The notes under the pieces were generated by a model that was given only the letters and a program-made list of their open reading frames with translations, made no database searches and was not told the origin of the DNA. A stretch of 61,292 bases of DNA from Asterionella formosa (lineage: Eukaryota): contig NKIB01013250.1 in NCBI GenBank assembly GCA_002256025.1, positions 1 through 61,292 on the forward strand. Direction: 5' to 3'. A program made the translations under genes and the position numbers. This document shows, piece by piece, positions 7,787 to 47,701 of the stretch (within the stretch, counting starts at the first letter, position 1; the number at the start of each line of letters is the position of its first letter).

Positions 7787-10700
7787 CTAAAAGGGAAAGG
7801 TTCCTGGTGGAAAATACTTCTTGCGCCAACGACTGCGTCTCAACGAACTTGTGTGGTCTGGATGAACCCGCGTGAGGCGCTCGCCAATTTTCAGCTTAAC
7901 ATTCAGAAGGGTACCACATTCTGGTGGCTCCTCCCAAGTTGATTCATCATCATTCTCTGTATACATACTCTGACTATATGAATTCCCTTCGTCATCATCA
8001 CTGCGAGTAACAGTGTCATCACCACGAGTGTTCCGAGTGCATTGAGAGTATGATTCAGATCCAGAGTCAAAAGATGAGTCGGAGAAACTACTGGAGGGGC
8101 TTTCGTGGTTTTTAGAAGTGTTCCGTGTTTGCCATGTTGTGTACCACTCCTCGACCCACTCACCAGCATCTGGGAGATTCTCTGTCGGCATTTCCATTGA
8201 TTTTGGGCGGGCAACTGGAAGTTTCACACGATCATTGCCACGAGTCCGATTCAAGTCGCCAAACCAATTTCTGCTGAATGATATGCTCTTCTCGTGAAGA
8301 AAGTTTTGGAGTACTTCACGATCTTCCCAGGGTTCGTCATCAAGGTCATGCCATTCCGAGTTGACCATTGCAGCATTGTACAGCGAGAACACGTGGACAT
8401 TGAAATAGCCTTGATGATTCTGGGTTCTGTCCTTGTACGTTGATTGCCATTGTTGTCTGATGGGAATTGCTCGCTCCCTAACCTCGCGCCTTTTGAAGAT
8501 GGTCGATGCAGCAGCCACTCCACTGATCCTGCATCTTTCATCAAGGTCCATCAAAAGGTTGATAGGACGAGAATCTTTTTCATGGTATTCGAGACACCAT
8601 CGCTTCTCCCACGGATTCCGCCATTTAGAGGCATGCCTGCGAGACAATAGAGTCGCACGATCCCCTGGAGAAAGAAAGCCACTGAACATATTTAACATGA
8701 GATCAGATGGTGAAGCCAACTGAAAACCATTGTAGGCAACCAACGCCTGATTCTCGTTGGTGTCACATTTGCCGTTTTCTGATTCTTTCATTGCATCTCG
8801 CCGCTTGTTGCCCTTGATAGAAACAATGCTGCCAGCACTGATATCTGTGACCATCTTTTTCCGAGCTGACCTGGCCATTTCAATTGCTGCAGTTATTTCC
8901 TCCATGCTCTTCTCCTTTGGATTCTTTTTATGTAGTGAAAATTCCGATTCCTTGACGCTGAGGCTGAGGCTGTTGTCCAGCTCAAGACTGAAGGTAGAAT
9001 CAATAGTTTTGAGGTAGCGACCATCTTCGTTGCCTGATTCCACGGCAACGACAACGGCCTGATCCACTGTTGTCTTAATATTTCTTGATTTTAAAGTCTT
9101 TTTCCCCTCCTCTTCTGTCCACCAGTCCCCTTCTTCTGGTTCACGCTCCAGGCATATATTAACAAATCCATGTTGTGCGTCGATTTCGACGCCGACTTCC
9201 TCAGCCACTTTTTCTGTGCCCTTTGGTACTTCGCCATTTTCATTGAAGTGACCACCCTCTTTTAAAGCCTCCATTCGTGATAAAAAGGCAGTGATGTTAT
9301 CATTTTCATCGATATCCTCAATTTGTTCAAATTTCATGTCGTTGAGAACCTTGACAGCAACATCTTCACTATCTACTGACGAGCAACCGGAGAGCGTCGA
9401 AGCAACTCTTTGTAAATATTCTGTTTCGTCCAGAAGTCCATCAATGACTTTAGCAGAGATTCCAACACGTGTCGCTGCAATGCGCAACTCAGCTTCTTGC
9501 ACCAATGAAAGCTGAGTAAGTTGCAGCAACGGACTGGCATGCTTAATGAACTCATTTAGCTTCGTAATTTCCTCAGTAGAAGCGCCTTCTGGAGGTGTCA
9601 GCTTGGAGAAGAAATCGTCGATGATAGCCTGTTTTGCGCCATGGACGTTATGTTCCTTTGACGTGTCCAAATCTTTTGGGAAGAAGCCCTCAACTATTTC
9701 ATGCACAACATTTTCAGGCAAGCCACTTTGCCTCATGCTGCTCACAAAGCTAGCTCGCTGCTCCTCTAGTGTTCCGCTTCTACTACGCTCCATTGCTTTC
9801 TTAATGTAATAATTGATTCGGTCACTGTCTTCTTCGTAGTCCGGACACCCTGATTGATCTAACTTGGACAGAAATTTCTTGATATTCTCGTCTTGATCGA
9901 TTGACTCCATGGTGCTGTAGCTTTTCAGAGTAATTTGGTCCGGGCTTGCTGGTAAACTGTGCTTGTTGAGTGAAAGAGAACCCTGAAGAAATGCTGCAAC
10001 TAGATCACCCTCGTCTTCGTCAAGTGAATTATCCGGAATCTCGATATCTTTCAAGGTGGGATGCCTTGGCTTATTGCCTTCAGCCAGTTCTTTCTTGATC
10101 TTGGCAATAGTTGCAACACCAATGTCATCGTCATTAAGAAGAGATTTATGTTCAAGGAGCCCATCGTTTCGCTTGGTATTGTTCTCAAACGATTGCAGTG
10201 CACGAAGCTGCTCCAATTCGTCAACTTCGGGCTGCTCTATCTCCACTGTCTTGTCAATATCTGGTTCTGTTTCCCATGGAGTTTCGTCGTTAGATTCAAT
10301 AGAATGGTCTCCCACTAGAAAATGCTCAATATGCTCGCCAGCGAGTCGACTTTGAGGGCGTTCGTGTGACTCTTGGAGCGAACTGATCTTGATTTCGTGA
10401 ATTGAGTCAAAAAATAACGTCTCTGCTTCATCAGAATCAGAGGATGCCTGAATAAATGAGTCATGGTGAAGTAGATCGGATGCGGACATATTCGCTTTCT
10501 CGGAGGAAACCATTGGGCTTTGTTCTTCTGCCAAGCTCGATGTCACTGTCTCCACGACAAGGGTTTCTACACACTGGTGGGTTTTGTCCTCATCGACACT
10601 CGATAGCTTTTCTGGGGCATATCCCAAACGCATGACTTCATCAACATCACTACCGCATTCACCCAAAGCCTTTTGCGCAGTCGCGATGAATGTATTGAGT

Positions 10701-12448
10701 TCGTCGTCAGTCTCTGGGATCACAGATTCATAATCATCAAGATACATCAAACTATCATCATCACTGCTCGAGACATTAAGGGTGCTTTCTTGCAGTGACA
10801 TCACATTGCTACTCTGCGGAGAACGCAGACACTCAGTTTGAAGTGCAAGAAAGTTGCTTCCTGGAGAATGTGCGGTGGATATTGGAGTATTGCTCTTTTT
10901 CTGCAATGCGTCAATGAATGCTCCAATGCCAGCCCTGGTAGACATAGGAATGCTATCTTCGTCTGAATCGCTGTCAGCTTCAGGCAATTGAGGTACCAAA
11001 TGTTGAGTTGTCGCGAGCTTATAATCAACAAACGAAGAATCTCCAGACGAATCTGAAGGAACCTGAGCCGGTTTTGATGTTGTAACACACGATTTGGACT
11101 TTGGTTTGGCAATGGCGTCAATGATGTGCCCAATCTCTTCGATAGTTTCAGAATTGACCAGAAACGAGTCAGTGGATGAATCAGAAGGTACCTGCGAAAT
11201 TGCAGTTGGAGTAGGCACAGAAACGGCAGACTCAGCCTTGGGTTTGGCAATGGCATCAATGAATTTCCCAATTTCATCCATTTTCTCGGGGCTGATAGGA
11301 GCTAGGGTATCGACCTTCGGCATGGAAATGGCGTCGATAAAGTTCCCAATCACTTCGATGGTTTCCGGGTTCAGTGGCAACGAGTCGTCCGACGAACCCG
11401 ACGTCGCTCGCTGGAACTCTGGCCTTTCACTCTTAGGTGAAGTGTCGCTGTCTTGTTTAGGGAGTCTTTCAATGAATTGAATACTAGCTTTCGAATTTTC
11501 TTGATCAACAGAAGACTCATCACCTTCCACAACTCCACCATTTTGTTTATGCAGGGCATCAATGAAGCGACTGACGTCGGCCAAAGTCTCTGGATCGACA
11601 TAACACTCATCACTGTCCACAGAATGTAGGACAGAATTCCGAACTGGGACGTTGTCCATAGGCATATCTCCGGATGCTATTTTGCGTGTTGGGGTTCGAG
11701 GATTCCCCATCTGAGCGGCTGCAAAGCGACTCCGACCGCGCGAGACGTCTCCGTGACCGATAAATCCATTTGGGCTACCACTTGTCTTGCTGCGAGGTGT
11801 GTTCTCTTGATCAACCAGCGGCTCGTCCCCAGAACGTGGAGACAAAGTCAATGGTGGTAGATTCTGTGTTATGGCTGCCGCTCGGGACGCAAAGTTGCTG
11901 GCAATGAATAATCTATTTGGAGATTGCAAATTTGTACTGTTGTTGTCAGTGGTTTGGGTTAGGGGTGAAGTATTGCTTCCAGCCTGTGCGGTCTTCGTCG
12001 AAGACTCCATAATTATTCTAGGTGACCCCGCTTGCTGTGACGACTGCACTAGTGGCTTTGGGGTCAGTGGAGATCGAGATGGGGATTTACCTCGAGAAAT
12101 GGCACCGATTGGAACGCCAGCACTAGCGGTGAAGGAGGATGCTGTCGTTTGAGGAGCAACTGGAATTGAGACCCCGGAAACGATGGATCCTGTTGGACTT
12201 GCTGCTTTTTTCATGGAAGACCTCTTCACTGCTGCTTGTCGTGCACGCACCAATGCAATAGCCGCCGATACCCTCTCACGAGAAGGCGGAGTCTTCTTCT
12301 GCAGCAACGTTTGTATCGTGGCAGTCCTATGGGAGGCGGCATCCAATGGGGAGGGTGATGGCATGAGGTTCGACGCTGATGCTGCATGGACAGTGTTATT
12401 TGGACTCTTCACAACAGTAGGCAGCTCCCTTCTGGAAACTGCCGGCAT
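7787..12448 (-). CDS. Large (1553 aa) Ser/acidic low-complexity protein of unknown function with a Trp-rich C-terminal domain
   Basis: Uninterrupted 4.7-kb ORF, first ATG at 12448 (MPAVSRR); internal FIDA(I/L) repeats; no transposon motifs. Confidence 0.85.
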   Translation of the reverse strand: MPAVSRRELPTVVKSPNNTVHAASASNLMPSPSPLDAASHRTATIQTLLQKKTPPSRERVSAAIALVRARQAAVKRSSMKKAASPTGSIVSGVSIPVAPQTTASSFTASAGVPIGAISRGKSPSRSPLTPKPLVQSSQQAGSPRIIMESSTKTAQAGSNTSPLTQTTDNNSTNLQSPNRLFIASNFASRAAAITQNLPPLTLSPRSGDEPLVDQENTPRSKTSGSPNGFIGHGDVSRGRSRFAAAQMGNPRTPTRKIASGDMPMDNVPVRNSVLHSVDSDECYVDPETLADVSRFIDALHKQNGGVVEGDESSVDQENSKASIQFIERLPKQDSDTSPKSERPEFQRATSGSSDDSLPLNPETIEVIGNFIDAISMPKVDTLAPISPEKMDEIGKFIDAIAKPKAESAVSVPTPTAISQVPSDSSTDSFLVNSETIEEIGHIIDAIAKPKSKSCVTTSKPAQVPSDSSGDSSFVDYKLATTQHLVPQLPEADSDSDEDSIPMSTRAGIGAFIDALQKKSNTPISTAHSPGSNFLALQTECLRSPQSSNVMSLQESTLNVSSSDDDSLMYLDDYESVIPETDDELNTFIATAQKALGECGSDVDEVMRLGYAPEKLSSVDEDKTHQCVETLVVETVTSSLAEEQSPMVSSEKANMSASDLLHHDSFIQASSDSDEAETLFFDSIHEIKISSLQESHERPQSRLAGEHIEHFLVGDHSIESNDETPWETEPDIDKTVEIEQPEVDELEQLRALQSFENNTKRNDGLLEHKSLLNDDDIGVATIAKIKKELAEGNKPRHPTLKDIEIPDNSLDEDEGDLVAAFLQGSLSLNKHSLPASPDQITLKSYSTMESIDQDENIKKFLSKLDQSGCPDYEEDSDRINYYIKKAMERSRSGTLEEQRASFVSSMRQSGLPENVVHEIVEGFFPKDLDTSKEHNVHGAKQAIIDDFFSKLTPPEGASTEEITKLNEFIKHASPLLQLTQLSLVQEAELRIAATRVGISAKVIDGLLDETEYLQRVASTLSGCSSVDSEDVAVKVLNDMKFEQIEDIDENDNITAFLSRMEALKEGGHFNENGEVPKGTEKVAEEVGVEIDAQHGFVNICLEREPEEGDWWTEEEGKKTLKSRNIKTTVDQAVVVAVESGNEDGRYLKTIDSTFSLELDNSLSLSVKESEFSLHKKNPKEKSMEEITAAIEMARSARKKMVTDISAGSIVSIKGNKRRDAMKESENGKCDTNENQALVAYNGFQLASPSDLMLNMFSGFLSPGDRATLLSRRHASKWRNPWEKRWCLEYHEKDSRPINLLMDLDERCRISGVAAASTIFKRREVRERAIPIRQQWQSTYKDRTQNHQGYFNVHVFSLYNAAMVNSEWHDLDDEPWEDREVLQNFLHEKSISFSRNWFGDLNRTRGNDRVKLPVARPKSMEMPTENLPDAGEWVEEWYTTWQTRNTSKNHESPSSSFSDSSFDSGSESYSQCTRNTRGDDTVTRSDDDEGNSYSQSMYTENDDESTWEEPPECGTLLNVKLKIGERLTRVHPDHTSSLRRSRWRKKYFPPGTFPF

Positions 12449-13644
12449 GGTGGAAACTATTATTACTTGATGGTTCAAGATAGCAGGATTGCAAGAAGAT
12501 GGCTGTATTGTTCGAGATGGGCAATTCCAAACACCCGGGAGGGTTGCGCATTTGTTAAATTGATTCTTGGGAATAATATTTTGGCGATTTAGCGCGAATT
12601 TTCCAGTAGCATTTGATTTGGAACGTTTTATCGATCAGTTTCTATATACAATGTATATAGCATTGAGATATCCTTTAAGTAAATGTAGTGTCCTGAACCG
12701 TGCACCACATGCAACCATGTTGGAAGATGGAAATATGTTCGTTAAGCATTGATGATACTAAGAAATTCCGGAACCTAAGTCAGCATCACTGGTTTTGAGC
12801 ATGGCGCGTTTGGCTGGCGACAAACTCCCGGCAGGAGCACCATCAAGAGAGAGTCCCCGGAAAGCTTGATTTGAGAAAATATGCCTGTACTATTGTGGAA
12901 GTAGAACGCTATGTATTCTAGATACACCAATGCATGAGCTGTACGAATACTCAGTAATACTGTACATACGTAGTCGCAGAATGACGTTTATTACCGGTAA
13001 CACACCAGTGCAACGACATAGCAAAGTATCGTATTATTACTGGTAAAACTCAACCCAATTTGTATTTTTCTGTAGTAGACCCCTGGTATTGTCCAACTCG
13101 GGACATCATGGTGCCAGTTATAAATGGCTTTGAGCCACGTTATGATATCGTTTTCCGACTAATTCTAGAATTATGCTAAAATCGGTCCCCTCTTTCGTCC
13201 TTTGGCACGATATTAGTTACCGGTAGTTCATTAAGCTACATGAGAATTAAATAATTTTTTTTATTTGAACACATATTTACTGACGAGATCTATCCACATT
13301 AAAAGTGACAAAAACGGCCGAAGTGGCTCAAAGCCATAGATGAAAAGATTTATCATACATGAAGGTTTTTTAATGGACGACAGTCAGAAAATATTATATC
13401 GTTTGCATGTTTTTTTCGCAGCCAGAAGCTGTTGGTTCCCACAAAGACTCCTCACATTTTTTCGCTGCAGTTGTTGCATCGCTCATTCTTAGACTCCCAT
13501 CGTATCTTGTCATGTAGGGTGAGGAAGTGGTGCCATTGCAGTTGCAACTGGTACTGCAGCATCACCACACATCATAGTGTCGTGGTATCTGGTAAGTAGA
13601 AGTTGCTTCATTGTTGGGAATGGAAGATTGCCTGCTTGCTTGTA

Positions 13645-14032
13645 TGTAAGATGTGTGATAGGTTTCCGGGTTATGATTTGAATTCGATTTGTAACTTGCC
13701 GCTGATTGACGTTCTTGGTGTTCGTTATGGACATTTGAGGTTCATCTGTGGGTCTCCTTCAGGGTGTTCTGATGGCGATTGGACTATTGTCTGTAATGGG
13801 CCTTTTGTGCGATGTATGTAATCATCATTCCTGCATGTCTGAAGGCTTATGGGTCTTCGTTTTTCGCCGTTGTATTGGCGAGCATTTGCCTGGCTTGGGT
13901 TATTCTAGATAAGGCAAAATACTTGTTACAATCATATACCGGTAATTAAAATTAGACTTATTCACCTGTGTCTACTGTCTTACTGAATATAGCAAACTAC
14001 GTTTATTTACGAATATTCGTCGGTTTCCCTCA
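13645..14032 (+). repeat. 5' LTR
   Basis: TG...CA, 388 bp; 9 mismatches to the 3' LTR by manual alignment. Confidence 0.96.
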
Positions 14033-14046
14033 CGCTTCCCCTGCGC
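14033..14046 (+). promoter_or_regulatory. Putative non-canonical primer-binding site
   Basis: CGCTTCCCCTGCGC immediately follows the 5' LTR and is the reverse complement of GCGCAGNGGAAGCG, the D-arm of eukaryotic tRNA-iMet. Confidence 0.65.
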
Positions 14047-14124
14047 AAAACGACAATTGTCATAAGAAGACTTCCGTCTAACATTCTCCATCGATCCAAT
14101 CGACTTCGTGGACTTGATCCCAAC

Positions 14125-15403
14125 ATGGCTCAAGCAATCAATGCCCCCGCGGTTTTTGTTTTCGCCCTTACACCTGCTCTTGCAAACCCAGACCCTGTCG
14201 ATTACAACACCAGTGAGGGAATGAAACTCTACAAGTCTGCCATGGAGAAACTTCATCAAACCTTCGATGGTGAGACAGGCAGTCTCCGCCTCTTCCTTCA
14301 AGCCTTGCAGCAGAGAGCGGATGCATTCGGATGGGAGTCCATCCTCACTGTTCCAGATGACCAGAACATTGGACGCAACTTGATTACAGAGTATGGTCGT
14401 GTATCCATGGCAAATGTAATTGCTCACGCAACCACCCATGTGCATACTCAGACGCGTGACGCACAGAACAGCGCCCAGCTGTTCACGTGCATCTATGACT
14501 CTTTGTCCCTTGATGCATTCTTGCTCAAGGTGTCTACGGACTCATCTACATATCGACTTGCATCTCCCAACGCCCCTACATATGTGGTTGCCAGCGGAGC
14601 CGCCTTCCTCAAGCTACTCATCACAAGAAGGTGTACGGTTGATACCCGATCTACTGTCGCAACTATTCGCCGCACTCTAAGTGCGCTTAACCAGTACATC
14701 TTGTCCGTAAATTGCGACATTGAAAAATTCAACCTACATGTGCGCGTATAGCGCGATGCCTTGTTGTCTCGTGGTGAAATGTCGTCTGACCTCTTGACCA
14801 ATCTATTTACGGCATATGAGGCCGTGGAAGACAAGTTTTTCCATGACTATATGGTTGGACAGCAGGACCAGTATCATGATGGGCGAGTGGATTTTGATGC
14901 TGACTCCCTAATTGACCTTGCACTCAATAAATTTAAGATGCTTGTGGCTGGAATCTAAGAGGTGGAATCTACCTTCTGCTCAGGATGTCAGATTGGAGGC
15001 TCAAATCGTTGCACTCACGGCCAAATTGGAATATTTCAAGGCCAACCGAAATGTCACTCCTAACAGCAAGAAAGAAAAGGAGAAAGCTAGAAAGGCTAAG
15101 CTCGCCAAGAAATGGGCCTGGAAATTGGTTCCCCCTAAGGAAAATGACCCCAAAACGAAGACTGTGGACACCAAGGAATATCATTGGTGTCTCCACCATG
15201 CTTCATGGACAATGCATACAGCAAAGGAGTGTAATCTAAATTCCAATGCAACACCTGCAACCAATAAACCAGTGAAGAAACCCGTCAAGGACAAAACGGC
15301 TGATGCGATTACCCTCTCCAACGCTTTGGCCAGTATCATGGAGACGCAGAATGATGATGACGATTCGAACCAGGGGGAGGACGATGTTTCAGTCACGGGC
15401 TAG
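14125..15403 (+). pseudogene. gag with C-H-H-C zinc knuckle
   Basis: ATG at 14125; premature TAG at 14749; frameshift near 14955; YHWCLHHASWTMHTAKEC knuckle; terminal TAG at 15401-15403. Confidence 0.85.
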
Positions 15404-15865
15404 GAAATGGGCCGGAGAATGATGACCATTTTAAGTAACTTATTTAGCTATGGGTTATATCAATTCATTCTCTGTGGGCCGGTTTTTGTGACTCTCATGT
15501 CGGATTACCTTTCTATGTCATCGGAAGCATGCCTATGGTGCATATGGTTTCTTGTGATCTTTGTTAGCACCCCCTTTATGCGCTCTGCATCATATAGTCA
15601 GTACATACCAAAGCGAAAACGTTCCAATATTCCTCTATATGCTTGCGCTGGGTTATAATATGGTATAGGCATTTGCAAAGCCATGCTACGAAATTGCAAA
15701 GCCATGCTACGAAAGATGGAATTCTCTCTGGCCCGATCATCAAAACGATGCCAACCTTGCCATGGGCAATCATGGGTTTTTGTGTGGGCGAAAAATGGAA
15801 GGTCCCTCATAAAATGCGCCCAACCATGATGCGGGCCTACATAGCAACGTCACACCCTGCCTCCT

Positions 15866-18800
15866 ATGGGATACAGTATGTCTACCACCTATCAAGGTTG
15901 CTCAGTCACACCACGACCTTTTGACTCTGACAGTTATCTACTAATGATTGACAATTGCTGTTCTAAAGGCGTCACCAATTGTCGCACCGACTTTGTAGGT
16001 ACCCCTACTCCAGTAAGAGCCCAAATAAGTGGTGTGGGAGGCCCCATACCGGTTCTACTGAAGGGAATGGTTAAGTGGAAGATAGAAGATGATACGGGAC
16101 GTGTTCACATTTTTCGTATTCCTGGGACATTTTATGCGCCCAAGGCCCCATTTAGGATGTTATCACCCCAACACTGGAGCAAAGAAATTAACCGTGGTCG
16201 GATTGGAACTAAGGGAGCATGGTGCACTACCTATGAAGATAGGGTGACCCTGTGCTGGGAAAATAATCGCTACGTTCGAAATGTCAAGCTGGATCCAGCT
16301 AAAAATGTAGCTACGTTGCTAACTGCCCCAGGGACTAACCGATATCAAATATATGAGGCGATACTCAAAACGCAAGCAGAGTTCAAAACAGAGCTTAGGT
16401 GTTTTAAACTAAACACTGTTCCTGACAATAAGTGCATCTGGTCTGATGGTCAGGCAACGGAGCAAGACTCAACACTCCCTTATGACTTTGATGAAAATGC
16501 GGAACTCATGTGGAAAGACCAAAAGCCCAGAGCAGTTCCTAAGTTTCCGATGTCCACGGCTGAGAAACAGCAGAGAAGTCTCGCAACTACTACTGACCAG
16601 CCCGGATTCGATCTTTTCCATGATACCGATGCCCGGCCCATCGAGATTGAAGAACAGGATGCCATGACTTCTATTGCCCAACTTTTGCGAGTCCATTACC
16701 AGCTGGGACATCTTCCTTTCAAGCAGATTCGCTGCATGGCGGGAACTGGTTTTGTGCCGAAGAGCCTCCTTCAGGGACGAATCCCAAAATGCGCTGCTTG
16801 CATGTATGGCAAGGCCACTCGCAGAGCGTGGCGATCCAAGGCCCTACCGGGCAAAGTGGGAGGAGACCGGCCCGCATTCCCCGGAAAATGCGTGTCAGTC
16901 GATCAAATGCAGTCGCCCGCACCCGGCCTTATTGCGCAACTGAAGGGAGTTCCGACTACTCAAAGGTATACTGCGGCGACGAGTTTTGTGGATCACTTCA
17001 GCAGTTTGTCATATGTCCACCTGCAGAGGTCCCTGACATCGGACGATACGGTCCGAGCGAAGAGGGCGTTCGAGCGCTATTGCGCATCGCATGGTGTGAG
17101 GGTATTGCACTATCATGCCGACAATGGCCGATTTGCGGATACCCTCTTCCTTCGCGACATTGATGAGCAACGACAGGAGATTTCGTATTGTGGGGTGAAT
17201 GCCCACTTCCAAAATGGAGTGGCGGAGAAGAGAATCCGTGATCTGCAAGATATGACTTGTACTGCCCTCCTACATGCCTCGGCGAGGTGGCCAAGCGCCA
17301 TGTCAAATTGTCTGTGGCCATATGCGCTGCATATGGCCAATGACGCCCTGATCAGCTCCCCAAGGCGTTTGGATGGGCGATCTGCTGTGAGTGTATTCTC
17401 ACTTGCCGACGTGTCCCCAAAACTCAGTACATTTCACCCATTCGGATGCCCCGTATATGCGCTATCAAACGAGCTGGCCGCGGGGCAAGGCTTGCCTAAG
17501 TGGGACAAGTGGGCACTCGTTGGCATCTATCTTGGGCAGTCTCCCAAGCATGCACGTTTGGTTGCTCTCGTACTGAATATCAAAATGGGTTTGGTGTCAC
17601 CGCAATTTCACATTGTGTTCGACGACATGTTTGAGACAGTGGGTGAAAAGGGGATTCTTATGAGCTTGGCTGGCTGATGGCTACTCCCTTTTCAGCCAAA
17701 ACTAGCTGGCGCCCTGCCGCGCCTTCGCCCGACAGGAACATCCAGCACACGACCACCACAGCCAGCAATATCCCGATCCAACAGCCGATGACTGTGGTAT
17801 CCACGAACCCAGGTGCATCCCCTCTTGCAGAAGATATATCACTCGATGTTCTCCAGGAGTTGTCCGAGCCAGTTGTGCCTGACCTGCGGGACACAAGGCA
17901 ACTGCCTGAGAGTAATCGCGACTCCGTGGGTTTGGTTTGGTGGTCTCAGCAACACAAGCCCTCCAGAAGGCTTCAAGAAAGCATGGAACAGGGTTTCCTC
18001 TGCAAGTCTTCAGTACTGGAGGATATTGAAGGGGACGAGGAATATCACATACAACTGATAATGGATGATCCTATCGCTTTTGTGGCCAAGACGTCCAATC
18101 CTGATACGTTGCGAGCCGACCAGGCCCTGCAGGAACCCGATCGAAAACAGTTTATTGAGGCTATGGAGGCCGAGGTGATGGCTCACCACAACAATCATCA
18201 CTGGAAGGTGGTGCCTAAGTCTGCGGTTCCCTATGGGAGCAAGATACTACCATGTGTGTGGGCTATGAAGCACAAATGTCACATAGCCTCAAGGGAGGTT
18301 TATAAATGGAAGGCTAGGCTAAACTTACATGGTGGTAAGCAGGAATATGGCGAGAACTATTGGGAAACTTATGCGGCAACCCTGTCGTGGCCACCCATCC
18401 GCTTTATGCTGATCTTGTCCCTCATGCATGGGTGGAGTACACGCCAGATAGACTTTACACTTGCTTATCCACAACCAGATGTGGAATGTGATTTGTACAT
18501 GGAAATTCCTCATGGTTTCAATATGCCTGAGGGGGGTAGATCTGATCATTGTTTGAAGATATTAAAAAACATTTATGGACAAAAACAGGCTGGGCGAACA
18601 TGGTCTAAGCACTTGACAAAACAAGGCTTATTGTCTATTGGATTTGTTCAAAGTGAGGCTGATGAATGCATCTACTATAGGGGTATGACTGTATTTATGG
18701 TATATGTGGATGACGGTATCTTCATAAGTCCGGATGCCTGCCTAATCGATGAGTGTATTGAACTTATGCAGGCTATTTTTAACTTGACGGATGAAGGGGA

Positions 18801-19704
18801 CATTTCGGACTACCTGGGGATCAAGGTATCCAGATCTGAGGATGCTACTACTATCTCCTTGACTCAACCCCATCTCATTGCTTCTATAGCCAATGATATT
18901 GTCTTTACCAACAAGACCAAATCTAAGGGAGTTCCGGCATCACTCTCCGTTATTTTGCAGCGGGATCTCACAGGGGAAGATTTTGCTGAACACTGGTCAT
19001 ATCGATCCATCATTGGAAAGCTCAATTTTCTGGAGAAATCCACTCGTCCTGACATAGCATACGCTGTGCACCAATGCGCCCGTTTTTCGGCTAATCCAAA
19101 GGCATCCCATGCTGCAGCGGTCCGTAACATTGTTCGCTACTTGATAGAGACGCCTGAGCAAGGAATCGTGCTGCAGCCCAATGAGCACTCTTTTGTGGTG
19201 TGGGCAGATGCTGATTTTTGCGGAAATTGGAAAAGAGACACGAGTGTGAGTGATACGATGACAGCCAAGTCTCAATCCGGATATGCGATTACTTATGCAT
19301 CCTGTCCGGTGTTATGGGCATCAAAGTTGCAGACCGAGGTGGCGCTGTCCACCACTGAGGCGGAGTATGTGTGCCTCAGCCAATCTCTACGGGACACCAT
19401 TCCGCTTATGAATTTGCTGGCTGAGGTCAGGGACAAGCTTGATAAATATGTGATATCGTTTCCAGCTGTCCGCTGCACCTTGTTTGAGGATAATTCCGGG
19501 GCATTGGAGTTAGCCCGCACTCCCAAGATGCGCCCCTGCACCAAACACATCAACATTAAATACCATCACTTTCGTGATCATGTGCGGCGCAAACTCATCA
19601 GCATTGAGCACGTTGCAACTGAAGACCAGGTGGCTGATATTTTTACCAAGCCACTCTCTGTGGTGGCATTCTTGCGTCATCGCAAGTCATTGCAATGCTG
19701 GTGA
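15866..19704 (+). pseudogene. pol: protease-integrase-RT-RNase H
   Basis: LMIDNCCS protease, HYQLGH...CAAC zinc finger, SVDQ/HADNG/GVAEKR integrase, KARL...YVDD RT, WADAD/EDN/ADIFTKPL RNase H; frameshift at ~17677. Confidence 0.95.
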
Positions 19705-19743
19705 TCTGTGAATCTGTGAAAGTTGTCTGCTCGAATAAGGGAG

Positions 19744-20131
19744 TGTGAGATGTGTGATGGGTTTCCGGGTTATGATTTGAATTCGATTTGTAACTTGCCA
19801 CCGATTTACGTTCTTGGTGTTCATTATGGACATTTGAGGTTCATCTGTGGGTCTCCTTCAGGGTGTTCTGATGGCGATTGGACTATTGTCTGTAATGGGC
19901 CTTTTGTGCGATGTATGTAATCATCATTCCTGCATGTCTGAAGGCTTATGGGTCTTCGTTTTTCGCCGTTGTATTGGCGAGCATTTGCCTGGCTTGGGTT
20001 ATTCTAGATAAGGCAAAATACTTGTTACAATCATATACCGGTAATTAAAATTAGACTTATTCACCTGTGTCTACTGTCTTACTGAATATAGCAAACTACG
20101 TTTATTTGCGGATATTTGTCGGTTTCCCTCA
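19744..20131 (+). repeat. 3' LTR
   Basis: Direct repeat of 13645-14032, preceded by the PPT and followed by the TSD. Confidence 0.96.
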
Positions 20132-20755
20132 TTGTAATGCTTTGTTGTTGGTAATGGAAGATTGCCTGCTTGCTTGTAACATATTGCCATTGTTTTCGTT
20201 TGCGCCACTGTCCACTCTGTTGACTGTTTGTTTAGAGTTCTGATTGTATCAACCTTGTTTGCAAGCGCTGTGTGTGAATCTATTTTCTTATACTCTTGCT
20301 CACTCTGCACTTCTTCCGCACGCCTCTTCCTTTTCAGCTCTTCATCAACCACTTCAAAAGTTGAAGTACCTGCCTGCAGCGACATGAAGACCGGCTGTGT
20401 ATTGTCTATTGCTTGCAATGGCCCTTCGTGCTGTTTCTTTTCATTGGTCCGCATGATTGCGATACTGTACTAACCTGATCAACAAGGGTTCCAGTGATGC
20501 CTTGGCTCAAGTTTAGTCTGGATAGGGGAATGGAAGAGACTGGTTGATTATTGTTTGCTTCTGTTTGCAGATTCGGGGTTTTTCAGTTGAATTTCTGGAT
20601 GGAACAAGAAGTTGTAGTTCAATGAAACCCAACCTCATTCAGCAACAGCTTTTTGGTTTGTAGCGAAATTGGCAAAGTATTCATCCCATGATTTCGACAC
20701 CAGATCAACAATGCATATCATCCTTTCCAACAGCAAATTCAGCATGGCGCCTTTT

Positions 20756-20882
20756 CTTTGGGGTGAGTAAGTCTCTCTTGCATTTCGTGAGTTGGATGTA
20801 TAAACTTGGATTTGTTGTCTTTGGGGTGAGTAAGTCTCTCTTGCATTTCGTGAGTTGGATGTATAAACTTGGATTTGTTGTC
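20756..20882 (+). repeat. 63-bp perfect tandem duplication
   Basis: TTTGGGGTGAGTAAG...GGATTTGTTGTC occurs twice; single copy in the paralogous element near 48900-48970. Confidence 0.92.
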
Positions 20883-24620: not shown

Positions 24621-27200
24621 CTAGAGATACTGATCGAACCAACGTTTGATGTTGATCCAATGATCAGCTTCGGAAACGACCTTATCAATGGCATGATCAT
24701 CACCATCATATTGTAGGAGTTTTGTTATAATCCCTTTGGCACGAATCATGTGGTAGAACTCAAGGCCTTGAGATGGTGGAACTCGTCGATCACTCATGCC
24801 AAGAACCATAAGAGTTGGTGCAACAACATGGGTAGCATGTTGGACAGGGCTAGCATCATACATAGCATTCATTTCATCCTTGTGAGCTCCTCTAAAGTTA
24901 CGCATGTTGTAAGTGCCACAACCAAGAGCCTCGACAAAGCACCAATCAGGAATGTCAGTGGCTGTCACCATGGAAGCAATGTTAGTGACAGGATTTCGCA
25001 TTGCTGCAACCTTAAATATCTCAGGGAATTGTCCCACGCAATGAGCGGCAAGGAAGCCACCATGGCTCCCTCCACATATACCGATTCGGTCAGGGTCAAC
25101 CCAGCCACTCTCAGACATGGTAGTGGCTGCGTGAACAACATCCTTGACATCGAGTGAGCCAATATGCCCAGGCAAGGCTTCTAAAGCGCGTTGACCGAAC
25201 CCAGTAGATCCTCTATAATTGACGTGCAGAATTGCGTATCCACCTTTACCACATAAATAGGCATAAGGAGGGTTAAATGTAGTTGGAGTGCAAGAGTGGG
25301 GGCCACCGTGGGGAACAATAATGAGAGGTGGTTTCTTTCCATCTTTTGTATCGTGTGGTTTCATCAAAATCCACTGCACCAGTGTTTCAACTTCGTCCTC
25401 GATCTTGGGTGACTTCATTGTAAATACGTCATAGGAAAAGTTGAGCAATTTGTTGATCTCCCCCGGTTCTGCTGGACAGAATGAGCTCGCTGTGAATGGA
25501 CTCATTTCCACGACCAATTCAGCTTGAAATGTAAAATTTCCGTCCACGTTTCTGACTTGCAAATTTTGCGGAGAAACGTATCCAATAATTGTGGGCCGGT
25601 TTGGTGCGCTTTCTGATATGATGGCCCCTCCTTCATTGGTGACACAAAGTACTTGCTGACTTGCCAAAGGCTCTGATGAAGCACCCTCTCGTCGAACAAT
25701 TTCAAAGTTGAACAAGGTCATGGAACCATCCAACAACGAGATTCGAACCACTTTTTGTATGCTTCCCCACTGCGTTGTAGTCAATAAGAACTCACCTGTG
25801 CAACAATTCAGAGGCAATTGATGAAGATATAATCCAGGAAAGCCCATCTTGGCTACTTGTACTGATTGTTCGTCGACTACTGGAGGTGGTACAAGAACAG
25901 TTGCAACTACTACACGGTGTGTTTCCAATTCTGGAATACCCATTTCGACGTCCCAGTCAATGGCATGAAGCGCCATGCCCCCATCGTGAGTGTCAAAACC
26001 GATTTTATTCGACAGGAAACACAGCTTGGAACGACCGTCGTCGGCGGGCGAGAATCGCGGTGACCTCGAGAGTCGACTCATTTCCGAGAGACAGACGCAT
26101 TCGCCATCCGTGGCGTTAGCCGATGAATTGGAATCGTCGGTTCCTGCCAAAGAGTCAACAAGGCTGGAAATGGGTGACGCATATATCTTACATGGGCGAT
26201 TCAAGCAGTATATCATCCCCAATCGTCGAGGCATTTCACCTCCTCCACCGGCATCCCAGCAAGTGTATACAACATGAGTTCCACAAGGAGAAAACATTGC
26301 TTGCCCAAGCGTCCAGCCACCTTCAGTTGTATTTTGTGATAGATCTTTTCCGGGAACATTTTCAATTTTCCCCACTCGTCCCGTCTTGGTGTGGCAGCAA
26401 AACAGATCGAGCGACCCCGCCAAATCGCCGTACTTTTCACCCCAATGTTCTGATTTTCCTACGCCAAGGGTGAATTCGCCCCCGGAAACTTTGTTTTCGG
26501 AATTCTCTTCGTCCGGTTCAAAAAACGAATTAGAATCAGGGTTCTTGCGCTCTGCAGAATACACAAATGCTGTTTCTCGCGCATTCCAAGAAATGGTCCC
26601 AAATCCGTTCGGGTCGTGAATAACCTTTCCGTGAATCGATTTGGGCAGAACAATTCTTTGCGAGAGAGATTGGCCATTGTTGGTCCAAATTTCAAATATT
26701 TGGCGCCCGGCATTCTTTGCGCTTTCCTCTTCCCTCAGAATGACAAGGTTCGATCCCGATGGAGAAGGAACACGAGCCTTTATACCAGAGTCAAGTTCAG
26801 TTGGTGGAAAGCGAATGTTTTGGCCCAATGGAATGCTGTATAGAAGCTTTCGTCTCTTCGCTTGATCGATATCTCTAACCGATCTGGTGACTTGCAAAAT
26901 GCCATTGTGCACATGAACGTCTGAAAGATCCACAGCAGCGGACACAACCATGCTGAAAGCCCGGGCGTCTTGCTGTGGCGACGATGGCTTATCAACTTGC
27001 AATTCGCCAACATCAGTCATTGACACGCTTCGTTTAGACTTTGCTTCACTCACTCTGTTGCGATCCCTAAATTTGATGGACAAGTCGACGTTGTGGAAGG
27101 CCTGTCGCTTCAGCAGATTTCGTCCCCAGAAGGCGTTGGTACAAGAGGATAGCAAAATGATGGAAAGGAGTAGAGACACCACGGGAAGGATGCGGTGCAT
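24621..27200 (-). CDS. APEH: Acylaminoacyl peptidase (peptidase S9C, APEH-like) with N-terminal targeting leader
   Basis: HGGPH, NYRGSTGFG, nucleophile GGSHGG, DRRV and DDHAI catalytic motifs; first ATG at 27200 (MHRILPVVSLLLSIILLSSCTNAFW). Confidence 0.93.
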   Translation of the reverse strand: MHRILPVVSLLLSIILLSSCTNAFWGRNLLKRQAFHNVDLSIKFRDRNRVSEAKSKRSVSMTDVGELQVDKPSSPQQDARAFSMVVSAAVDLSDVHVHNGILQVTRSVRDIDQAKRRKLLYSIPLGQNIRFPPTELDSGIKARVPSPSGSNLVILREEESAKNAGRQIFEIWTNNGQSLSQRIVLPKSIHGKVIHDPNGFGTISWNARETAFVYSAERKNPDSNSFFEPDEENSENKVSGGEFTLGVGKSEHWGEKYGDLAGSLDLFCCHTKTGRVGKIENVPGKDLSQNTTEGGWTLGQAMFSPCGTHVVYTCWDAGGGGEMPRRLGMIYCLNRPCKIYASPISSLVDSLAGTDDSNSSANATDGECVCLSEMSRLSRSPRFSPADDGRSKLCFLSNKIGFDTHDGGMALHAIDWDVEMGIPELETHRVVVATVLVPPPVVDEQSVQVAKMGFPGLYLHQLPLNCCTGEFLLTTTQWGSIQKVVRISLLDGSMTLFNFEIVRREGASSEPLASQQVLCVTNEGGAIISESAPNRPTIIGYVSPQNLQVRNVDGNFTFQAELVVEMSPFTASSFCPAEPGEINKLLNFSYDVFTMKSPKIEDEVETLVQWILMKPHDTKDGKKPPLIIVPHGGPHSCTPTTFNPPYAYLCGKGGYAILHVNYRGSTGFGQRALEALPGHIGSLDVKDVVHAATTMSESGWVDPDRIGICGGSHGGFLAAHCVGQFPEIFKVAAMRNPVTNIASMVTATDIPDWCFVEALGCGTYNMRNFRGAHKDEMNAMYDASPVQHATHVVAPTLMVLGMSDRRVPPSQGLEFYHMIRAKGIITKLLQYDGDDHAIDKVVSEADHWINIKRWFDQYL

Positions 27201-27310
27201 AGGTCCGAACACAATAATAGGACGACAGTCAGTACAGTACTATGGAGTATTGATTACAATTCGCCTGGTGTGTGCCTGTGGTCTGACATAACATTACAAC
27301 AAGACCATCA

Positions 27311-46282: not shown

Positions 46283-47473
46283 TCAATCGTAGTCCCTATT
46301 TGCAAATTTGGTCTCGTCATAATATGTCGCCTCCACCTTACGACCATCAAAGGTTCGCCCAGCAAGTCCTTGAATTGCCTTCGCAGCGTCACCAATAGAG
46401 CTATACTCCAAAAATATCTTTGTCGCTCCCTTTTCACCCAGTCGAGGAATTGTAACTTGCTTGAGGGTTCCAAACTGACTGCACTCATCCCTTGTATCTT
46501 CCAATATCTCAAGGTATTCGTCGTCGTCTTTCAAGTCATCCTCGGAGAGCATTTGGCGAAGTTCCACCACCCTGCTAGCAGGTGACATGGGAGTAATTCC
46601 ATGAGGAGAGCCTCCCGTTGAATCGTTCAGAACAAGCCTCAATTCGCCCGACATGTACTTGGCAAGAATGTCTTCCCAATTACCATGCTGCTCAGTCGGT
46701 CCAGTCCACTTTGACGGACGTCCCACACGAAGCTGCGCACCTAAGAATGGAATATTATTCAGGTTGAGAGCACTTGCGGCTTCTTGTGGTGAACGCAGTT
46801 CAATGAAAGCAAATTTTCCACTAACACGACAAGCCGTGATCGGGTTTCCTGGCAGAGTATTGAGGCCAACCTGCAACATGGCTTGACCCAAAAATTCTCG
46901 CAGCATGGATTCAGTCATTTCCGGCGTTGTGTTTCCAACAAATAGCTCTCTTTTAATCTTTTCTTCGGCAGAAGCATCAAGAACAGCATTGGCAGGAAGG
47001 GCTTGTCCAGTCAGCTCCTGCCAAGTCTGGTGTTGAACGATTGGGCCCGAATACTTACTCGGGCGTGAAATTTTCAGAATTGCGCCTAAGAAAGGAATCC
47101 CGTTGACGCTGAGGGCTTTGTTTGCCATCTCCGTAGATACGCATTCAATGAACGCAAATTTTTGATTGACTCTACTGTTTAGAATTGGGGTTTCATGAGG
47201 CAAACAGAGACCAACTCGACGCATGGCTGCGTTGACAAATTGCATTAAGAGCAACTCGGAAGTACCAGGAGGGGTGTTTCCAACAAAGAGCTCGCGGTGG
47301 ATCTTCTCCTGAGAAGCTTGCTGCGACGATTGCATCATCATTCCGGGGCCCCCTGAAGGAAAGTAGTTTGCAAGCGGAGGTATGTCACCGTATTGAGAGT
47401 AGGCCGTGTCTCGGGTTGGAAGACGCTCTCTGGATCTGGAACGGTCCCTTCGATGGCGATCATCGTAGCTCAT
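46283..47473 (-). CDS. U2AF large subunit (U2AF65)-like splicing factor
   Basis: Short RS region, two RRMs (ELFVGN...KFAFIE...RP) and a C-terminal UHM (EILEDTRDECSQFG...GRTFDGRKV); first ATG at 47473. Confidence 0.9.
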   Translation of the reverse strand: MSYDDRHRRDRSRSRERLPTRDTAYSQYGDIPPLANYFPSGGPGMMMQSSQQASQEKIHRELFVGNTPPGTSELLLMQFVNAAMRRVGLCLPHETPILNSRVNQKFAFIECVSTEMANKALSVNGIPFLGAILKISRPSKYSGPIVQHQTWQELTGQALPANAVLDASAEEKIKRELFVGNTTPEMTESMLREFLGQAMLQVGLNTLPGNPITACRVSGKFAFIELRSPQEAASALNLNNIPFLGAQLRVGRPSKWTGPTEQHGNWEDILAKYMSGELRLVLNDSTGGSPHGITPMSPASRVVELRQMLSEDDLKDDDEYLEILEDTRDECSQFGTLKQVTIPRLGEKGATKIFLEYSSIGDAAKAIQGLAGRTFDGRKVEATYYDETKFANRDYD

Positions 47474-47701
47474 TTTGGTGAATAAGATGCGATAGAGATC
47501 AGAAGACAATTTGCTCGAGTAAGGGGGTAGCAGACTGGTCGTGACGATAGCAATGTCGAACGAAGAGTAGGCAATTTGGAACTACGTTTTGCTTTTATTT
47601 TCCGTCCCTTTGCTTGAATCCTTTGCTTTTTTTGTAGGTGCTGTGTTACCTTGAGAGTAATCCGACCACCAGACGATGTTTTGTACTTACAGTACCAGGT
47701 A

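Follow-up and report, generated by a model that had tools for sequence, protein, structure and literature searches.

A block directly after the 5' LTR of a diatom-type copia lineage matches the D-arm of initiator tRNA-Met and is a candidate primer-binding site for a short 5' tRNA fragment

The window, by which we mean the whole 61,292-nt stretch of DNA that was analysed, carries at 13645-20131 a Ty1/copia LTR retrotransposon (Pseudoviridae), assigned to this group because its integrase is encoded ahead of its reverse transcriptase (RT). The features of the element are collected in Table 1. Its two LTRs differ at 9 of 388 positions (97.68% identity by blastn). The RT frame matches the Pfam family RVT_2 (PF07727, E = 2e-35), no Pfam family was found in the gag frame, and the integrase frame gives matches to gag_pre-integrs and SH3_retrovirus that are both weak and fall under the Pfam cut-off. 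Alignment of this frame with the integrase parts of 15 homologues gives 41 to 51% identity and invariant H/H/C/C and D/D/E-type columns, and in these homologues PF13976 lies ahead of PF07727. The copy is damaged by an in-frame stop in gag and by three or more changes of frame between the gag, protease-integrase and RT stretches, located at about 14912-14955, 15400-15845 and 17647-17677; it is defective and proves nothing about current activity. The window contains neither a second copy of the element nor a tRNA gene.

Several repeats and host genes surround the element. A 34-nt stretch, TTGTTGG[G/T]AATGGAAGATTGCCTGCTTGCTTGTA, lies at 13611-13644, ending right before the 5' LTR, and recurs with 33 of 34 letters identical at 20145-20178, 13 nt past the 3' LTR; the element seems to have inserted where two copies of a ~42-nt tandem unit meet. 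Two perfect tandem duplications were also observed, one of 63 nt x 2 shortly beyond the element (20755-20882) and one of 21 nt x 2 inside it (15673-15714). The neighbouring open frame of 1,563 aa (7787-12478, minus strand) matches no Pfam family at E <= 0.001, and two ordinary host genes are found on the minus strand, a frame resembling prolyl-oligopeptidase/acylaminoacyl-peptidase at 24621-27212 and an RRM protein at 46283-47509.

Table 1. Features of the Ty1/copia copy, with positions counted from the first letter of the window
Feature	Position	Strand	Remark
Target-site duplication TTGTA, left copy	13640..13644	+	5 bp; repeated after the 3' LTR
5' LTR	13645..14032	+	388 nt, TG...CA; direct repeat
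LTR-terminal CA	14031..14032	+	could also pair with tRNA U25-G26
Primer-binding site CGCTTCCCCTGCGC (predicted)	14033..14046	+	complement of tRNA-iMet positions 10-24 (D-arm)
AA following the block	14047..14048	+	opposite tRNA G9 and U8
gag remnant	14125..14955	+	frame map; in-frame stop at 14749-14751
Protease-integrase frame	15845..17674	+	homologue alignment; weak Pfam matches
Reverse transcriptase-RNase H frame	17647..19701	+	RVT_2; shifted relative to the integrase frame
Polypurine tract AAGGGAG	19737..19743	+	adjoins the 3' LTR
3' LTR	19744..20131	+	388 nt; pair of 13645-14032
Target-site duplication TTGTA, right copy	20132..20136	+	directly after the 3' LTR

The similarity between the LTRs stops at ...CCCTCA, and the first 14 letters past this end are CGCTTCCCCTGCGC. 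This 14-mer occurs once in the window when both strands are searched with up to two mismatches, where 0.08 occurrences are expected, and at least one match appeared in 8 of 100 shuffled controls. An earlier note on this DNA had placed a primer-binding site (PBS) complementary to the D-arm of initiator tRNA-Met (tRNA-iMet) immediately after the 5' LTR and had pointed out that no TGG follows it. Both the position and the lack of TGG were confirmed: there is none within 0 to 5 nt of the LTR end and none in 30 nt, and a canonical PBS for the 3' end of a tRNA is rejected. The anticodon-stem-loop site of the Hemivirus type is rejected as well, being absent after the LTR of the window and, searched as GGTTATG[AG]G, giving 0 matches in 79 related loci (described below).

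The note's interval, 14031-14046, is composed of the 14-nt block and the terminal CA of the LTR. This CA would pair with U25-G26 in tRNAs reading ...GCGTG, and such tRNAs exist; any pairing of the CA with the tRNA is inseparable from the requirement of integrase for the same two letters. Could a canonical PBS appear if the LTR ends were redefined? None does, and the ends are fixed by the LTR similarity, by the target-site duplication and by the 3' LTRs of two related metagenome loci. In these loci (L122 and L199), a further LTR copy stops at this CA and gives way to unrelated DNA, so the border between LTR and PBS is fixed independently of the window.

To compare the block with tRNAs, we scanned viral contigs for the exact 14-mer, which gave at least 121 loci, and predicted tRNAs in them with ARAGORN; the tRNA examples are thus ones selected by the motif itself. 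Among the matches listed, 25 of the 56 predicted tRNAs hold the reverse complement of the block, starting at tRNA position 10, and 24 of these 25 are Met(CAT) while one is Pro. The other 14-mer loci in viral contigs lie in unrelated contexts, as is expected from the chance occurrence of a 14-mer in a very large collection. The variant with T at one site is held by 43 of 57 tRNAs from 118 viral loci (40 Met(CAT), 2 Pro and 1 Ile). Taking the listed matches of both scans together, 64 of 68 motif-bearing tRNAs are Met(CAT), the others being 3 Pro and 1 Ile(GAT). The complementarity to the D-arm of tRNA-iMet that the note had described is thus seen in Met(CAT) genes over the 14 nt of the block. 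Since tRNA-Pro and tRNA-Ile(GAT) share this D-arm, the 14 nt alone do not point to a single tRNA species with certainty.

Other features of these tRNAs bear on their identity as initiators. The T-loop ATCGAAA, which we take to be a hallmark of eukaryotic cytoplasmic initiators, is present in 48 of the 65 motif-bearing Met(CAT) tRNAs listed across the two scans; of the same 65, 52 have CG and 10 have TG at positions 25-26. Several viral contigs, L028, L045, L108 and L239 among them, carry tandem arrays of 2 to 4 initiator-like tRNA-Met genes with the D-arm block. A human antisense oligonucleotide printed for tRNAMet(i) contains ...caCGCTTCCGCTGCGCca..., which is the block with one letter changed and with CA in front; a second probe sequence was also located in the literature.

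Is the block a property of this single damaged copy or of its family? The RT frame has 1,442 homologues at E <= 1e-10, and within the best 120 of these 1,442, named relatives come from two diatoms alone, Fragilaria crotonensis and Epithemia clementina. An integrase alignment built with the 15 homologues retrieved 79 related metagenome loci, 36 to 68% identical to the query; no relatives of gag, RT or this integrase alignment were found in the viral contigs searched. The expected 5' region is missing from 29 of the 79 loci, leaving 50 that are informative, and 43 of these 50 have the motif CA+CGCTTCC[C/T]CTGCGC, two mismatches being allowed, where it is expected: ~1.4 to 2.3 kb upstream of the first residue of the query, or ~4.1 to 4.4 kb downstream of it in permuted or tandem contigs. 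Conservation among relatives, on which the reading of the earlier note depended, is thus established for this set. Three of the seven loci without the block hold decayed copies of it (a 1-nt deletion, a 1-nt insertion and 3 mismatches). One block-less locus, L193, is 5'-truncated within gag, and three, L129, L156 and L189, show no D-arm block though the expected 5' region is present in the locus. In L193, positions 1-190 are G+C-rich, unlike the rest, and are joined to gag without a 5' end, as in a truncated insertion or a chimeric contig. The sequence TGGTACCGCC in L129 was considered as a canonical PBS and rejected, as it lies inside the gag reading frame.

After removal of near-duplicates, 37 distinct elements remained. 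Across them the 16-nt block carries 1.93 bits per column, compared to 0.24 in the 5' flank and 0.19 in the 3' flank; the flanks cannot be aligned, the block is the sole conserved block there, and its LTR-terminal CA is invariant. The motif is strongly biased in strand, with 46 matches on the element strand and 2 on the opposite strand in the 79 loci (421,778 nt), and no major branch of an integrase tree built from 78 loci and the window lacks it. Taken with the tRNA matches, these comparative data support the interpretation of the block as a D-arm PBS, and we hold it probable that the block is the primer-binding site for a 5' fragment of tRNA-iMet ending at G24-G26, in a copia lineage of diatom-type genomes.

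The location of the block bears directly on the alternative that it is an auxiliary contact with tRNA-iMet, acting in packaging or in the initiation complex, with priming from another primer or site. There is precedent for such a contact in the bipartite PBS of Ty1 and Ty3, where element RNA likewise pairs with the D arm of the same tRNA; the contact is auxiliary and lies elsewhere (in Ty3, according to a review, the U3 of the RNA contacts the D arm of tRNAiMet), and priming proceeds from the native 3' end. In contrast, the window element has its D-arm complement at the priming position, adjoining the LTR end where the copy of the primer must lie, and has no complement of the tRNA 3' end. Neither a TGG nor another conserved block follows within 30 nt (0.19 bits per column), and all 79 loci lack an anticodon-arm complement. 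We consider a purely auxiliary contact unlikely.

The tRNA of the host sample was approached through the sequencing run that best holds the window (X1, with 82% of the sampled words of the window, a share of 0.82), aligned on the viral locus L108, which has a motif-bearing tRNA-Met, as the reference. A 44-nt piece of X1 spans tRNA positions 8-43 and differs from the reference in 1 of 36 letters, at a place that the alignment does not give, so that 13 or 14 of the 14 site letters match; these short contig pieces are consistent with the match to the host's tRNA-iMet that the earlier note had anticipated, and are incomplete. On the D-arm reading, the host tRNA-iMet would be predicted to read GCGCAGGGGAAGCG. 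The 44-nt piece runs on into a stretch aligned with the CAT anticodon arm of the reference, and the loose ends in X1 give a self-consistent acceptor stem (TGCTGTT with AACAGCA). Several short X1 pieces that end at one place have 3 differences each and may be different variants; they were not used to place differences, and the mixed runs X3 and X6 were left out. Run X10 gave no pieces aligned to the tRNA locus of L108.

The word depth of X1 on the tRNA-iMet-like gene (L108:292-363) is very high, reaching 1,718 for the 5' piece and up to ~11,400 when summed, while other pieces have single- or double-digit depth. The leader base on the 5' piece suggests DNA. The depth could stem from a high number of gene copies, from a tRNA-derived repeat or from a mixed sample.

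The continuation of the X1 piece also bears on whether the site might be primed by the 5' fragment of a different tRNA or small RNA that shares the D-arm, for instance tRNA-Pro. The identical 14 nt in 3 tRNA-Pro and 1 tRNA-Ile(GAT) among the 68 motif-bearing tRNAs listed make this conceivable, but the other 64 are Met(CAT), the X1 piece with the D-arm leads into the CAT anticodon arm, and tRNA-iMet is the usual copia primer. A different tRNA as primer seems to us slightly less likely than an auxiliary contact.

Within the block, a single letter varies commonly. Counting the first match per locus, 35 of 43 loci have the form CACGCTTCCTCTGCGC, 4 have CACGCTTCCCCTGCGC, which is the form of the window, and 4 have the T form with its last letter changed. 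The letter in question, C or T, stands for D-loop position 16, at which real tRNA genes have G or A. The C form appears at three separate places of the tree, namely the window with L122 and L123, L134, and L190. L134 and L190 are distant C-form elements with a common contig-name prefix, and the three contig-name prefixes with two informative loci each are all concordant in the site letter. The numbers are small, and the pattern fits a site that would be copied anew from the tRNA of its host.

These details are relevant to the further possibility that the block is a cis-acting hairpin, a dimerisation site or an integrase-end signal whose likeness to a tRNA is coincidental. The fungal GalEa elements provide a parallel: they are a copia lineage without a tRNA-type PBS, and a short, strictly conserved palindromic block lies directly past the LTR. 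The block of the window can itself form a 3-bp stem. This hairpin is weak (-3.0 kcal/mol), however, and conservation is as strict in its seven loop letters as in the stem. In GalEa the block is palindromic, includes the last A of the LTR and matches no tRNA, whereas all 14 nt of the present block equal a real tRNA D-arm and its variable letter falls on the variable position of the tRNA. With a stem of only 3 bp and an exact tRNA match, a hairpin site of the GalEa type is rejected, and a cis-acting element in the wider sense appears less likely again than priming by another tRNA. Self-priming by the 5' RNA of the element itself, as in Tf1, is known in some copia and gypsy lineages, but here it is extremely improbable, as the 5' LTR holds no reverse complement of 14031-14060 longer than 7 nt (at least 10 nt being the criterion) and the 14-mer has no second match with up to two mismatches on either strand of the window.

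The 3' edge of the block is sharp. Among the 37 distinct elements, the letter at position +1, opposite G9 of the tRNA, is C in only 2 (A in 20, T in 11 and G in 4; binomial p = 0.007), and position +2, opposite U8, is A in 30 of 37 (binomial p = 6e-9). Position 9 of eukaryotic tRNAs is often m1G, a base unable to pair normally. We infer that the sharp edge reflects a pairing-blocking base at G9, and propose that C is avoided opposite G9 and A kept opposite U8 because the modified G9 stops or miscodes copying. Beyond this edge, the letters 14049-14055 (AACGACA) would pair at 5 of 7 places with the 5' acceptor strand of the tRNA piece from X1 (p ~0.03). Extended pairing to the acceptor strand as a general feature was rejected, as the same columns are without information across the 37 elements.

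How would a primer-binding site for the D-arm of tRNA-iMet work? The priming itself, the fragment, its cut site and the nuclease are what we infer from the match and its position. Because a primer has to pair with its 3'-OH at the U5-proximal end of the site, a 5' tRNA fragment would be required. The host tRNA-iMet would be cut after G24, giving a fragment of 23 nt because tRNA position 17 is absent, or after G26, giving 25 nt. The 5' fragment would then anneal to the site through its D-arm, by positions 10-24 and possibly to 26, and prime minus-strand strong-stop DNA there. At a later step the site would be restored by plus-strand strong-stop synthesis, which would run along the fragment from its 3' end as far as about G10-U8; a stop or miscoding at the modified G9 would lead to the letters observed at +1 and +2. 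More tentatively, and with somewhat less than even confidence, we suggest that a large and old copia lineage of diatom-type genomes uses a primer class absent from the reviews consulted, a 23- to 25-nt iMet fragment cut after the D-arm, that its site is bounded by the cut and by the modified G9, and that the variable letter is copied again from the tRNA of each host.

Fragments of this kind are known. The tRF-5 class consists of 5' tRNA-derived fragments of ~22 to 24 nt cut in the D-stem region, and the predicted primer would be of the same size and origin. In the open literature, we found no report of tRF-5 fragments acting as primers of reverse transcription.

Priming by a tRNA fragment has established relatives among retrotransposons. 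A survey of plant elements distinguishes three types of primer, a complete tRNA, a half tRNA cut in the anticodon stem and a self-primer, and reports half-tRNA-Met sites for Osser, Bryco and part of Gymco-II; in Hemivirus elements, according to another paper, DNA synthesis starts from about nucleotide 40. The window element resembles the half-tRNA users copia, Ty5, Osser and 1731 in belonging to Ty1/copia, in having its PBS adjoin the 5' LTR, in pairing with an internal part of tRNA-iMet and, on our reading, in a 5' fragment as the primer. It differs from them in that half-tRNA systems pair with the anticodon stem-loop, whereas the site in the window pairs with the D-arm and would end at nucleotides 24-26, with the cut one arm earlier. 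By analogy, then, the element lacks the defining feature of a Hemivirus-type site yet would work like one.

A D-arm PBS, or this block in a transposon, was not found in the open literature, to which our search was confined; subscription journals, Repbase and GyDB entries and supplements lay outside its scope, so a prior description is possible. The papers in which similar letters turned up concern unrelated primers or human tRNA probes. A word search of the accessible text of two studies of diatom copia elements, Maumus 2009 and Llorens 2009, returned no passage on tRNAs or primer binding. The D-arm site may accordingly be seen as a variant within tRNA-fragment priming that, judged by sequence, is apparently undescribed in the open literature.

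For the study of these elements, the 16-nt block is a precise and strand-specific marker of their 5' ends in genomes and metagenomes. Common annotation routes seek complements of tRNA 3' ends or discard candidates that have none; to them this lineage would seem to be without a PBS, and its elements could be lost from annotation. If the proposed mechanism is true, a cut after the D-arm would add a further type to the known tRNA-fragment primers, and retrotransposition in diatoms would be tied to the making of short 5' tRNA fragments.
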